Part shown: positions 14,475-27,397 of the stretch, in pieces | How the letters are laid out: each line of letters opens with the position of its first letter | Position numbering within the stretch: position 1 is the stretch's first letter | Notes under the pieces: model-generated | Told to the model about the DNA's origin: nothing | Database searches by the model: none | Seen by the model: only the letters and a program-made list of their open reading frames with translations | Position numbers and translations under genes: made by a program | DNA from: a phage | DNA: 64,000 nt | Sequence record: PQ724393.1 | Direction: 5' to 3' (one strand)

Positions 14475-14834
14475 TTAAAGATGGTCGAGTGCCGGATTAT
14501 GAGGCTTTTCTGCTTTAGCAGTATTTTTGTGCCAATCCGATTTAGAAACACGAATTGCATCCGCACCGTAAGAGCTCTTAAGGAGGCCCTTTTTATTGTA
14601 AACACTTATAGAAGTAAGGGTGTCACCATTCCAAGTAGCATGGACGAAGTTGGATTTAGATTTAAGTTCTTTAGCCAGGCTCTGGTTGGTAGCCATAGAA
14701 GCAAAGTCTTTACCTGTAACTTTAAAAACTTCAGATGGGTTCAGCCCTTCTTTAGCCTTAGCCAATTGTTCAGGAGACATAGCTTCGTTAATGCGCTGAG
14801 TAGATTCAGTAATAAATTGTTGGTAAGTTTTCAT
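14475..14834 (-). CDS. internal-protein-like protein with capsid targeting sequence (MKTYQQFITE)
   Basis: N-terminal decapeptide matches T4 IP capsid-targeting sequence with E at the gp21 cleavage position. Confidence 0.6.
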   Translation of the reverse strand: MKTYQQFITESTQRINEAMSPEQLAKAKEGLNPSEVFKVTGKDFASMATNQSLAKELKSKSNFVHATWNGDTLTSISVYNKKGLLKSSYGADAIRVSKSDWHKNTAKAEKPHNPALDHL

Positions 14835-14858
14835 ATTATTCCTTAAGTTGATAGAAGT

Positions 14859-14888
14859 ATTCTACCACGGATTTAATTAAGCGTAAAT
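14859..14888 (-). promoter_or_regulatory. degenerate copy of repeated promoter element (ATTTAC-N18-TAGAAT)
   Basis: AGTTGATAGAAGTATTCTA resembles the repeat core; upstream of IP-like gene. Confidence 0.35.
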
Positions 14889-15293
14889 AGCCTTGCCATA
14901 GTGTTTGTACCAGGTAGGACGTTGTGCAATTTTTTCATCCAAACGGGTTTGTGAAATAGCGATAGAAGCTTCGTGAGGAGCATAATCACCACGGAATTCC
15001 TGAGGAATATCACTAATGTCCTGGACCGTAGTATCTTTGATATTAAAGCCACGTTTTAAACATTCGGCTATAAGCTCGATTTGACGCTTACGTAAAAATT
15101 CAAGCTTATCGTAAAAGAATGTAACATGGCCTGCGCCAAGGATAAAAGTAGGACTGATTTTGAAATCACGGACACGTTTACCATTAGCAACATGCTTACG
15201 AACTGCACCGAAAACACGTGGTAATTCACGATATTCAGCCATTAAGTGTTGGTCAGCCAATTCAGATACTAAGGTAAGGTTGATACGAGTCAT
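14877..15293 (-). CDS. denV: endonuclease V (pyrimidine dimer DNA glycosylase)
   Basis: 138 aa, [31 protein letters not shown]... essentially identical to T4 DenV as recalled. Confidence 0.95.
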
Positions 15294-15303
15294 TTTTAAT
15301 CTC

Positions 15304-15349
15304 CTGTAGTTGATAGGTCTATAGTATCATGTCTACAGGAGATGTAAAC
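15304..15349 (-). promoter_or_regulatory. repeated promoter-hairpin element with 11-bp stem masking the denV SD
   Basis: 46-bp identical to the regB copy; ATCTCCTGTAG / CTACAGGAGAT stem, GGAG in 3' arm. Confidence 0.55.
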
Positions 15350-15373
15350 AACTTTTATCAAGTATCGGCTTTA

Positions 15374-15970
15374 TTAATTACCACGGGCTGCATTAGCAAC
15401 GGCGTAAGCGTACTGAACATTAGCGTCTTTAAACGTACCTTTAGAGGTATCTATTTCTGCCTTAAAGCCACCTTTAGCCATAACATCAGCAAATTCTTTA
15501 CGGAAAGCCATTGCATCAAGACCTTTCCATGATGATTTGTGCTTGGCAAATTCAAGACCGGCGAAGTTGACAGCCTTAGCCAATTTATTATCAATAGTCC
15601 ATTTACCTGCTTTAGGTACAACTACCGGGCCTTTTTGTTTAGAGAACAGTTTTAAATTCCAGCGACGAAGGTCGCCGTCAGCTTTAACAAAAGCTGCGTC
15701 CAAGTTACTAGCAACAACATCCTGAATATGGCCAAATTTAAGCCCATCAGCTTCAATATTTAGGTCGTTACGCCAGCGAAGTCCTTCCCAGGCGAAAGCT
15801 TTAAAGTCAGAAGCTTTTGTAGCTAAATACCGTTCAATAGGAGCTGTTTTAGCGTCAAAACCATTTCCTGGGTTGTCAACGCCATTTCCTCGGTAGGTCC
15901 ACTCATCTTTATTAATGCCTTGGACCTTTCCTACAGAAGCTTCGGCGATAAATTCTTTATACGTTTTCAT
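15374..15970 (-). CDS. ipIII: internal protein III-like protein with capsid targeting sequence (MKTYKEFIAE)
   Basis: CTS decapeptide; 198 aa, basic; adjacent to e as ipIII is in T4. Confidence 0.65.
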   Translation of the reverse strand: MKTYKEFIAEASVGKVQGINKDEWTYRGNGVDNPGNGFDAKTAPIERYLATKASDFKAFAWEGLRWRNDLNIEADGLKFGHIQDVVASNLDAAFVKADGDLRRWNLKLFSKQKGPVVVPKAGKWTIDNKLAKAVNFAGLEFAKHKSSWKGLDAMAFRKEFADVMAKGGFKAEIDTSKGTFKDANVQYAYAVANAARGN

Positions 15971-16013
15971 ACGGGTTCCTTAAAGGTAAATATTTTAATT
16001 AGTCTGTTCAATT

Positions 16014-16042
16014 AACTGTAGATATACTATCACAATTCTAGG
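16014..16042 (-). promoter_or_regulatory. sigma70-like promoter (GTTTAC-N17-TAGTAT)
   Basis: upstream of ipIII-like gene. Confidence 0.45.
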
Positions 16043-16057
16043 AGATGTAAACTGCTT

Positions 16058-16546
16058 TTATCTATAAGCGGCCCAAGTACCTGTTTTAAATGTTGAAATC
16101 ACGCGCTTAGCACGGTTAGGGGTTTGCTTGTACCAACGAGATTGAGCCAGGTTAACTGCCGCATCGTTCCAACGTTTCTGTTGGAGCATACGTAAAGAGT
16201 TAGTGAACCCTGCTACACCTGCTTCACCCATTTGGAAGACCATGTTAATTAAAGCACAACGACGAACTTCATCGAGCACATCATAAACAGGTTTCAATTT
16301 AGGATTACGCAGAATAGCTCTACGAGCATTATCAACCGACCGGTTAAAGAGTTGTTCTGCTTCAGCCATAGTAATACGACCATTACAAACTCGACCCATA
16401 AGCTTATCAAGTTCAGCGCGGGCAACATCTTTAGATGGGTTCTTGGTAACTAACTGGCCAATACCAATAGTCCAATAACCTTCAGTGTCTTTATAAAGAT
16501 TTAAATCAAGACCTTCGTCTTGACGTAACATATCAAAAATATCCAT
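16058..16546 (-). CDS. e: lysozyme (endolysin, T4 e)
   Basis: 162 aa; [13 protein letters not shown]...[13 protein letters not shown]... matches T4 lysozyme with catalytic Glu11/Asp20 context. Confidence 0.92.
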
Positions 16547-16548
16547 AA

Positions 16549-25665: not shown

Positions 25666-25670
25666 ATAGT

Positions 25671-25747
25671 TGGTGACCCGGACCAGATTTGAACTGGTAA
25701 CCTTTCCCTTATGAGGGGACTGCTGCTAACCATTGAGCTACAGGGCC
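25671..25747 (-). tRNA. tRNA with CAU anticodon (Ile-type as in T4, or Met)
   Basis: minus strand GGCCCTGTAGCTCAATGGTTAGCAGCAGTCCCCTCATAAGGGAAAGGTTACCAGTTCAAATCTGGTCCGGGTCACCA; anticodon loop CCTCATAAG. Confidence 0.75.
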
Positions 25748-25752
25748 TTAAT

Positions 25753-26019
25753 TTAAATTACAAATCCAGCAGGGGCATTATCATCTTTAGCCATGTGCTG
25801 AATTGTATGATAAGTCATTTCTTCAGGAGCAACCAGATAAGCCGCAACGTTAACTAGTGGAATTATTTTTGGTTTAGCGAACGTGCTATCAGAAATTGCC
25901 ATAAAGGGCTCGCCGTCGGTCTCAACTTCGCCAAATTGGCACTCGTAAGAAATAGAACAACGTTTGGTGGTGGTTGTCTTGGTTTTAGGGTCATAAAAAG
26001 CTAATTTTAATACTAACAT
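25753..26019 (-). CDS. hypothetical small protein (88 aa)
   Basis: ORF with GAGGT RBS. Confidence 0.45.
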   Translation of the reverse strand: MLVLKLAFYDPKTKTTTTKRCSISYECQFGEVETDGEPFMAISDSTFAKPKIIPLVNVAAYLVAPEEMTYHTIQHMAKDDNAPAGFVI

Positions 26020-26197
26020 AATACCTCAAATAAAATTAAGTAAAGTAAGTTTGATTAATAGACCTTGTCTATTATGAAAGGCTCTTTGAGGGAAGAACCT
26101 TTGGTAATAGAGGGTTACTTAATAATGTTAGAGTAATAATATCACATTACTCTTAAAGCATATTACTATTTTTAGGAATAGTCTGGTCAAATTTGAT

Positions 26198-26488
26198 TCA
26201 TTGTGGCCACATATTAATGTAATCAAGTTTAATAGAAGCAATCTTCAAAGGATTTTTAAAGATGTCGTATTCGACCAATCCATTTTCAGTTGCAGTATAA
26301 AAAGTAAAATTAACAGAATTATAACGATGACTGTTAACTTTGAGTTTAACGTCGCTTGAACTACGGCCAATATTAACCTGTTGAACATCAAGCACGGCAT
26401 CTTTGCCAAAGTTGCGAATCAGTAGCTCTGCTGCAACCTGGTCCGAATTATAGCCATTCTCTGGATTAGTAACTTTAACGTATAGCAT
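26198..26488 (-). CDS. hypothetical small protein (96 aa)
   Basis: ORF. Confidence 0.45.
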   Translation of the reverse strand: MLYVKVTNPENGYNSDQVAAELLIRNFGKDAVLDVQQVNIGRSSSDVKLKVNSHRYNSVNFTFYTATENGLVEYDIFKNPLKIASIKLDYINMWPQ

Positions 26489-26869
26489 TTAACCCTCGTC
26501 TACAATAGTGTGGGTATTGGCATTAACAATCTGCCACCAGTCAAAACGATTGGAACCATAACAAGGCTTATTCTCGTTTTCTTTAATGATATCGCGCAGT
26601 TCATCTTCAGTCGCTGCCTTTGCGATTAAGTCAGCATAACCGCCACGAGGATAATAGTTATCACCGGCAAAGAGCAAAAAGTTTGTTTTGATATTCTTGA
26701 ATTCTTCAAGAGTAATAACTGTTCCGCCAGGTTGAACAATATCTATATAACTATATCCTAATTTCTGTGCTTCATTTACCGCTTCGAGCAGGGTGTCGTG
26801 TGCCCACCCAATTTGGCAATCTGGTTTTTCAGATGGATTTGCTTGATAATCCGCATACACTTTATACAT
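26489..26869 (-). CDS. hypothetical protein (about 126 aa)
   Basis: start set to internal ATG (MYKVYADY); upstream part of track ORF overlaps next gene. Confidence 0.45.
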   Translation of the reverse strand: MYKVYADYQANPSEKPDCQIGWAHDTLLEAVNEAQKLGYSYIDIVQPGGTVITLEEFKNIKTNFLLFAGDNYYPRGGYADLIAKAATEDELRDIIKENENKPCYGSNRFDWWQIVNANTHTIVDEG

Positions 26870-26870
26870 T

Positions 26871-27068
26871 TTACTCACCTTTAGAGATTTTATCCATAAC
26901 GAAAGAAATTGAACCAATTAAGAATGCCACTACTAAAGAAATTATATTCTCGGAAGTTGAAAGCATATCGAGCATGAATCCTGCAAACATACTAAAGCCG
27001 AAAGCAGTAACAGCGGCCAGTGCAGTAACATTTCTAATTAATTCACAACGTTTCATTTTATTCTCCAA
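26871..27068 (-). CDS. small membrane protein (65 aa)
   Basis: two hydrophobic helices. Confidence 0.4.
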   Translation of the reverse strand: MENKMKRCELIRNVTALAAVTAFGFSMFAGFMLDMLSTSENIISLVVAFLIGSISFVMDKISKGE

Positions 27069-27092
27069 TCACTCATTTGTTTTGATAGGGCT

Positions 27093-27122
27093 ATAGTATC
27101 ACCACTAAAGCCCGTTGTAAAC
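27093..27122 (-). promoter_or_regulatory. repeated promoter-hairpin element (GTTTAC-N18-TACTAT; inverted repeat GGGCT / AGCCC)
   Basis: core TTGATAGGGCTATAGTATCA, one substitution compensated in the flanking repeat. Confidence 0.45.
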
Positions 27123-27124
27123 AC

Positions 27125-27397
27125 TTATTTTAGATAAATTGCGTATTTTTTATAACCAGCCGTCTCGTGGCGCAGCCCTTTTTCATTAGCAAAACGTTCA
27201 ATATTGTTAATTTGATTCTGGTCTAGTTCTGAAGTATCAAATACAAAAAAGTTTCGCTTATTGCCTAAAGTTACGTGATTAGTCAAATCGATGTTATAGA
27301 GATGATTTATATTATCAATCATGGTCTTAACAGATTTGTTAATTTTTACTTCTTCATTAAGAATAGATTCAGCGATAAATTCTTGATAGGTTTTCAT
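27125..27397 (-). CDS. internal-protein-like protein with capsid targeting sequence ([10 protein letters not shown]) at the ipI locus
   Basis: start set at the CTS methionine (ATGA overlap with 57B stop); about 90 aa. Confidence 0.6.

Follow-up and report, generated by a model that had tools for sequence, protein, structure and literature searches.

The 64,000-nucleotide (nt) stretch of DNA analyzed here (the window), from the T4-like coliphage sequence record PQ724393.1, carries four genes, designated A, B, C and D, whose products begin with a decapeptide that matches the capsid-targeting sequence (CTS) of the T4 internal proteins IPII and IPIII. We conclude that these are probably internal-protein (Ip) genes of a T-even phage of the JS98/JS10 type, with products that are packaged into the head, processed by the prohead protease gp21, injected into the host and likely active against its defences. 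The observation, first made in a prediction from the letters of the DNA (the original prediction), is correct but concerns a largely known system, that of the injected T-even proteins that bear the CTS and are encoded in polymorphic cassettes. What is new is modest: two abundant families of "hypothetical" proteins, those of A and C, bear the tag and sit outside the two classical IP loci, the phage is without the IPII of its closest relative, and the domain found in D occurs untagged in unrelated phages. The four genes and the two head-assembly genes that bear on them are as follows, a slash marking the predicted cleavage site (aa, amino acids; pI, isoelectric point).

14475-14834, minus strand: gene A, 119 aa, MKTYQQFITE/S; mature part ~109 aa, pI 9.5; phrog_3966 (unknown function); directly downstream of denV
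15374-15970, minus strand: gene B, IPIII (Ip3) orthologue, 198 aa, MKTYKEFIAE/A; phrog_5341; canonical position next to e
24676-25140, minus strand: gene C, 154 aa, MKTYNEFLTE/Q; mature part ~144 aa, pI 9.5; phrog_2280 (unknown function); between e.8 and the rnaC/rnaD-like RNAs
27125-27397, minus strand: gene D, 90-aa CTS protein with the predicted cut before Ser11; mature part ~80 aa, pI 8.0; phrog_7673 ("internal head protein"); between trna.4 and 57B
57813-58448, plus strand: gp21 prohead serine protease (Peptidase_S77, PF03420, E=6e-103), the expected remover of the CTS
58479-59294, plus strand: gp22 scaffolding core protein (PF25623, E=6e-90), to which CTS proteins are directed

The Shared Capsid-Targeting Sequence

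A megablast search with positions 14000-28500 matched 991 records of T-even-type phages, the top match being Escherichia phage fDHCT2 (98.7% identity, 97% coverage); next came JS10 and further members of Dhakavirus. The gene order also matches that of T4, running through vs.8, denV, ipIII, e, nudE, the e.x genes, the tRNAs, trna.2-4, the ipI slot, 57B, 57A, gene 1 and gene 3.

All four open reading frames (ORFs) of the original prediction are present on the minus strand with the N-termini that it gave, D bearing the same type of tag as the other three. A six-frame search of the window with the pattern M[KR][TS][YF]..[FL]..E returned exactly four sites, those of A-D, each at the start of an ORF, and by our rough estimate from amino-acid frequencies the chance of one ORF starting with the tag is ~1e-9. 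A relaxed pattern gave no further site in the window and none in positions 1-118,000 of fDHCT2, a phage in which five CTS ORFs all fall inside the same ~13-kb arc. Because this part of fDHCT2 has none and the window contains the rest of the genome, CTS genes in the lineage appear confined to the arc from denV to 57B.

The prediction that the decapeptide is of the T4 type and stands in a gp21 cleavage context was borne out. A-D all keep Tyr4, Phe7, Ile/Leu8 and Glu10, the L/I-X-E motif occupies residues 8-10 in each of them (ITE in A, IAE in B, LTE in C and IAE in D), and both gp21 and gp22 are encoded in the window. In T4, mutagenesis of the IPIII tag assigned residues 4 and 7 to capsid targeting and residues 8 and 10 to processing, gp21 cleaves after the Glu of L/I-X-E, and the first 10 residues alone are enough for packaging (PMC9026906). 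A second L/I-X-E motif is present in A (INE at 15-17) and in D (LNE at 13-15), where both proteins may be trimmed further, and several homologues of C have a doubled FLNE-xVLNE/A arrangement. The tag-coding DNAs of the four genes are identical at 22-27 of 30 positions, with synonymous differences at codons 3, 4, 8 and 9 (Thr as ACT, ACG or ACC; Tyr as TAC or TAT), and it is therefore the peptide that is conserved, beyond the mere copying of a piece of DNA. Moreover, A-family homologues with no more than 38% overall identity still agree at 9/10 tag positions, and the tag is retained in all cluster representatives of the C family.

Mature Parts of the Four Proteins

The mature parts of A-D are 9-21 kDa in size, with a pI of 8.0-9.6, and free of Cys, like T4 IPI, IPII and IPIII. 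The original prediction held that they differ from one another and are not all simple orthologues of the T4 proteins, and this is confirmed: in an all-against-all BLASTP comparison with the tags removed, the sole significant match was that of B to T4 IPIII (87%), and mature A, C and D resembled neither one another nor T4 IPI or IPII. The resemblance of A, C and D to IPIII lies within the tag only. Similarly, none of A-D matched Pfam at E<=1 and nothing significant was found in NCBIfam; T4 IPI itself matches PF11634 (IPI_T4) at E=7e-54, and none of A-D does. End-to-end matches of A, C and D to PHROG families were obtained with E from 5e-26 to 3e-56 (for D against phrog_7673, E=2.9e-56 over residues 1-90 of 90), and each of the three genes has a Shine-Dalgarno-like sequence 8-11 nt 5' of its ATG. 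We also considered whether A, C or D might be IpIV, IpV or IpVI of Yersinia phage PST, which comparison with the annotated PST proteins ruled out.

Gene B is, judged from its sequence, a plain IPIII orthologue, with 87% identity to T4 IPIII over the full length, 89% identity to PST IpIII and a match to phrog_5341 at E=1.2e-114. T4 Ip3 inhibits a Type IV restriction system of Escherichia coli ECOR17, the two-gene GmrS1/GmrSD2 (PMC12373910), and IPIII is needed on ECOR17 and is active in the cytoplasm without its CTS (PMC9391042). By this orthology, B very probably blocks an ECOR17-type GmrS1/GmrSD2 system.

Slots and Cassettes

The original prediction described two of the four genes as lying at non-canonical loci, one on the far side of denV and one beside the tRNA cluster. 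The positions are as described, A lying just past denV and C between e.8 and the rnaC/rnaD-like stretch and tRNA cluster. The term non-canonical is apt relative to T4, in which denV abuts vs.8 with no gene in the place of A and only intergenic DNA lies between e.8 and rnaC, but it does not hold for T-even phages at large, since the A slot is also found in Mosigvirus and the C slot in Tequatrovirus wV7 and RB32. In strict terms, A enlarges the ipII/ipIII locus to the far side of denV, and the slot of C is a distinct one, ~2 kb away from that of ipI. The suggested cassette-like exchange is also upheld, with homology to relatives breaking at 30 nt in A and 21 nt in D and with slots whose contents differ among relatives. 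The following features delimit the slots of A and B.

14805-14834, minus strand: CTS-coding 30 nt of A, the 5' cassette boundary, where homology to fDHCT2 and JS10 restarts
14424-14804, minus strand: variable cassette body of the post-denV slot (mature part of A and 3' flank)
14877-15293, minus strand: denV (endonuclease V), conserved, separating the slot of A from the ipIII slot
15291-15360, minus strand: T4-type early promoter (GTTTAC...GATACTAT) within a stem-loop (ATCTCCTGTAG/CTACAGGAGAT), occupying the place of ipII in fDHCT2
16058-16546, minus strand: e (lysozyme)

In the post-denV slot, homology to fDHCT2 and JS10 spans 14000-14423 and then restarts at 14805, a point exactly 30 nt (10 codons) inside ORF A; both phages carry an unrelated 99-aa CTS protein there instead of A. 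The A family was found in 91 phage records, 13 of them at >90% identity and all Dhakavirus-like, the others at ~36% and mostly from Mosigvirus; every record sampled annotates the protein as hypothetical. In Mosigvirus O157tp3 the homologue lies directly downstream of denV. A word-indexed protein search with A returned its own cluster only, and one with the Mosigvirus homologue as query returned two more. The AlphaFold2 model of A, built on a shallow alignment of four sequences, has N-terminal helices and a small beta-sheet, with a predicted local distance difference test score (pLDDT) of 65. The sole PDB sequence match of any of the four proteins, that of A to 9HNH (E=4e-4), was set aside as chance, 9HNH being a de novo designed solenoid that matches over a short low-complexity stretch.

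On the other side of denV, the gap between denV and ipIII holds a true IPII in fDHCT2, a 132-aa CTS protein in JS10 and only a 63-nt element in the window. The stretch of fDHCT2 compared here, 2794-3180, carries ipII, and its counterpart in the window, 15297-15359, is a lone early-promoter/stem-loop element. The absence of IPII with a promoter and stem-loop left in its place fits excision between flanking repeats.

The C slot and its surroundings include two further features.

25177-25526, minus strand: homologue of rnaC/rnaD (T4 small stable RNAs, species 1 and 2), 92% identity, between gene C and the tRNAs
25591-25747, minus strand: tRNA-Arg(TCT) and tRNA-Met(CAT)

The C family was found in 512 records across Tequatrovirus, Mosigvirus-like, Yersinia and Klebsiella phages, and it too is annotated as hypothetical in all records sampled. 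In Tequatrovirus wV7, the record of which mentions a similarity to RB32ORF133c, a homologue is located between e.8 and the tRNA cluster. The AlphaFold2 model of C (pLDDT 74.5) comprises a three-helix N-terminal domain, a Lys/Pro/Ala linker and a long helical hairpin. Foldseek searches of the PDB gave no match at E<=0.001 for the model of A or that of C and no resemblance to IPI*, and the BFVD returned for C only uncharacterised homologues and no functional lead. The possibility that C is a diverged IPII was rejected: the weak BLAST similarity came from the tag, and with the tags removed the C family and IPII had an hhalign probability of 2.8%. As a separate observation, P0010, a 94-aa metagenomic protein, joins a trna.3-like N-terminus to the last 27 residues of the C family, which implies that in some relative recombination has deleted the entire tRNA region. 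The tRNAs number two in the window, eight in T4 and three in JS10, and the rnaC/rnaD-like stretch at 25177-25526 was matched by no Rfam family.

Gene D occupies the ipI slot, for which two features are listed.

27132-27376, minus strand: variable cassette body of the ipI slot, by comparison with JS10
27394-27849, minus strand: 57B, Acb1-family anti-CBASS (cyclic-oligonucleotide-based anti-phage signalling system) phosphodiesterase (PF23474, E=8e-59)

Homology to JS10 stops at 27131 and restarts at 27377, 21 nt into ORF D. Elsewhere the same slot holds IPI in T4, IpV together with IpVI in PST and an IpV-like gene in wV7; in JS10 (EU863409.1) the gap between trna.4 and 57B has two unannotated minus-strand CTS ORFs starting at ~15274 and ~15564, one of which reads (M)KSYKEFLTE. 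The mechanical ORF list extends D to an upstream TTG at 27415, and we took the ATG at 27397 as the start, a sensible choice because this MKTY ATG overlaps the stop codon of 57B (ATGA). Through this overlap a counter-defence gene and a putative injected-cargo gene are translationally coupled. JS10 57B has the same stop/start overlap with a different CTS ORF.

Homologues of D were found in 200 phage records, and its domain extends beyond the T-even phages. Residues ~17-90 are 51% identical to a free-standing, untagged 72-aa protein of the siphovirus Kagunavirus JSSK01 (2507-2725), which heads a block of small, early-looking genes, and the same region aligns at ~33% identity with the last ~75 residues of a 964-aa protein (phrog_3867, unknown function) of Kuttervirus allotria, an Ackermannviridae phage (2501-2746). 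The phrog_7673 profile likewise matches the 72-aa Kagunavirus protein as well as the C-termini of ~860-960-aa proteins. An exhaustive HMMER search of 1.84 billion representatives yielded only 10 clusters for D, with tag-like N-termini in some (MKFNEFLTE, MKSFKEYLTE) and none in others. From these sequence relationships, D looks like a small effector domain that moves between unrelated phages and here bears an added T-even tag. A Mosigvirus OLB35 "ip7 protein" that shares the C-terminal half of D was set aside, as it has no CTS, follows an in-frame stop and comes from an UNVERIFIED record.

Since homology to relatives is lost within the tag-coding sequence or at its end, these are real cassettes, and across fDHCT2, JS10, T4, wV7, O157tp3 and PST the slots hold different CTS genes or none. 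From this pattern of presence and absence, A-D appear dispensable. In the proposed exchange, the conserved CTS-coding stretch and the ribosome-binding region would supply homology at the 5' side of a cassette, and repeated early-promoter/stem-loop elements would do so at the 3' side. These elements are ~25-65 nt long and comprise a T4-type early promoter (GTTTAC...GATACTATAGACCTATCAA), often in an inverted repeat that includes a Shine-Dalgarno sequence. At least nine copies are present in the window, starting at approximately 3201, 8642, 12961, 15291, 16040, 18785, 24467, 27082 and 61225, among them copies just downstream of C and of D; they are scattered through variable regions and unspecific to Ip cassettes. 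The arrangement agrees with the promoter/stem-loop-mediated modular shuffling of T4-type phages, reportedly described by Arbiol in 2010 and Comeau in 2014 under the name PeSL (promoter-early stem-loop).

Proposed Function and Alternative Explanations

By homology to T4, each Ip would be made with the 10-residue N-terminal CTS, through which it would attach to the gp22 scaffolding core during prohead assembly. After a cut by gp21 behind Glu10, at [I/L]-x-E, the small basic mature protein would stay in the head and then enter the cell with the DNA; in T4, internal proteins are present in ~300 copies each per head (PMC9026906). An injected Ip would act before phage gene expression, most likely by blocking a specific host nuclease, and A, C and D would be non-homologous cargoes, most likely directed against variants of modification-dependent restriction or other first-response defences. 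Such specificity is known from T4, where Ip1, Ip2 and Ip3 are inhibitors of three different GmrSD-type Type IV systems with no cross-protection (PMC12373910), and reviews describe the Ips as diverse defence proteins with only the CTS in common (PMC3012670, PMC2839356).

Several considerations weigh against this interpretation. That A, C and D are packaged, processed, injected and active against defences is a prediction from T4, and the structure models of A and C are of moderate quality (the pLDDT values given above) and match nothing informative. The D domain is found untagged in phages outside the T-even group, so that D could have a target other than a modification-specific restriction enzyme; the 64-kb window does not show the DNA-modification genes of this phage. 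Directly upstream of A-D, none of the four has a canonical late promoter (TATAAATA), the only one in the region being that at 16569-16576, just upstream of e, and late expression would thus rest on read-through, which is plausible from the sequence, or on variant promoters. Finally, Ip4-Ip10 gave no new partner when set against 15 GmrSD groups (PMC12373910), so that GmrSD is an unsafe default target.

The proteins could be packaged and yet serve not against host defences but as basic "filler" or assembly helpers, with a part in neutralising DNA charge, in packaging or in the assembly of the core and head. Mature A, B and C are Lys-rich with a pI of ~9.5, lysines of T4 internal proteins contact DNA phosphates (PMC3012670), and T4 IPIII mutants show slower head assembly and smaller bursts (PMC9026906). 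However, mature D is near neutral (pI 8.0), all three T4 Ips have specific GmrSD targets (PMC12373910), and the mature parts are unrelated and freely swapped or lost between near-identical phages, as with the IPII of fDHCT2 that is absent here, a pattern that fits arms-race cargo and not a structural need. We therefore regard a purely structural role as unlikely.

It is very improbable that the tag is a relic of recombination and that some of the proteins, A and C particularly, are unpackaged and act only after synthesis in the cell. Such a history would agree with the similarity of the CTS-coding DNA and ribosome-binding region between loci, where they mark the recombination boundary, with T4-type early promoters upstream of B and of denV (the latter would also drive A), with the untagged D-like protein in an early-looking siphovirus gene block, and with the activity of CTS-less IPIII expressed in the cell (PMC9391042). 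Synonymous differences around an invariant Tyr4, Phe7, Ile/Leu8 and Glu10 instead indicate selection on the peptide, the tag stays intact in homologues with as little as 38% identity, and in T4 these 10 residues suffice for packaging (PMC9026906). That A, C or D are spurious ORFs, as their small size and "hypothetical" labels might suggest, is effectively refuted by the end-to-end PHROG matches, the occurrence in 91 (A), 512 (C) and 200 (D) records with conservation across genera, and the Shine-Dalgarno-like sequences. Packaged and injected proteins thus probably account for A-D, and for A, C and D an anti-defence role is, by analogy with T4, the best-supported interpretation.

Other Features of the Window and of fDHCT2

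Three further tandem arrangements were noted. At 20863-22125 on the minus strand, five tandem small ORFs (74, 76, 65, 93 and 96 aa) with weak overall similarity share an invariant W-x-x-S-S-(x-x)-C at the extreme C-terminus and are hypothetical in relatives. At 61308-62591 and 62591-63871 on the plus strand are tandem paralogues of a vertex protein of the gp24/gp23 fold, both matching PF07068 at E~1e-97, in the place of the single gene 24 of T4. In fDHCT2, outside the region corresponding to the window, three tandem paralogues of alt (ADP-ribosyltransferase) lie at 11754-18014; the alt ADP-ribosyltransferase is another packaged and injected protein of T4.

Implications

Injected proteins act before phage gene expression and so help to decide survival against first-response defences such as Type IV restriction, and Ips thereby shape host range, which makes them relevant to phage therapy cocktails. 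Targets are known for Ip1, Ip2 and Ip3 only, with Ip4-Ip10 as orphans. The A and C families are probable injected cargo and, together with the untagged D domain, offer candidates and a comparative handle for the orphan Ips, although A or C may already be among the >30 Ip variants described (by 2007; Comeau et al., 2007, as cited in PMC2839356 and PMC12373910). More tentatively, and with some doubt as to the whole, the T-even arc of ~13 kb could contain at least four CTS-cassette slots (post-denV, denV-e, e.8-rnaC and trna.4-57B) with two unrecognised cargo families, A and C, and the CTS could be a portable tag on circulating effector domains. If the cargo system is open in this way, some Ips would target defences unspecific to DNA with glucosylated hydroxymethylcytosine, and tagging would be a general route from an early-expressed counter-defence protein to a pre-loaded one. 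The gain is incremental, lying in annotation and candidate lists and not in concept.

Comparison With Known Systems

Among the T4 internal proteins, the closest counterpart is IPIII, which shares with B the place beside e, the CTS cleavage site IAE/A and the type of upstream early promoter (that of T4 ipIII is the same as that of B); IPIII has 193 aa and B has 198, owing to a five-residue insertion near the mature N-terminus. T4 IPII (Ip2), the inhibitor of GmrSD/BrxU of ECOR21, has the tag type common to A-D, and no IPII is encoded in the window. T4 IPI/IPI* (PF11634), the inhibitor of GmrS/GmrD of E. coli CT596, occupies the same slot as D and is similar in size but unrelated in sequence, and its propeptide is of 19 residues whereas the tag of D has 10 and is of the IPII/IPIII type.

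Similarly to the PeSL systems, in which repeated promoter and hairpin elements flank cassettes, such elements flank cassettes here too, and one of them replaces ipII. The elements of the window differ in having a T4-type early promoter (GTTTAC...TAnnnT) where the RB49 PeSL is sigma70-like, and the 5' boundary here is the CTS-coding sequence itself.

The nearest precedent is that of the polymorphic T-even IP cassettes, for which cassette polymorphism and promoter/stem-loop shuffling at the IP loci have been attributed to Repoila 1994 (as cited in PMC2839356). The architecture is the same in both: a conserved leader is followed by unrelated bodies, early-promoter/stem-loop blocks lie on the flanks, and close relatives differ in the presence or absence of cassettes. 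In contrast to the two classical loci of that system, CTS genes here, and in many deposited genomes, also occupy the post-denV and e.8/rnaC slots.

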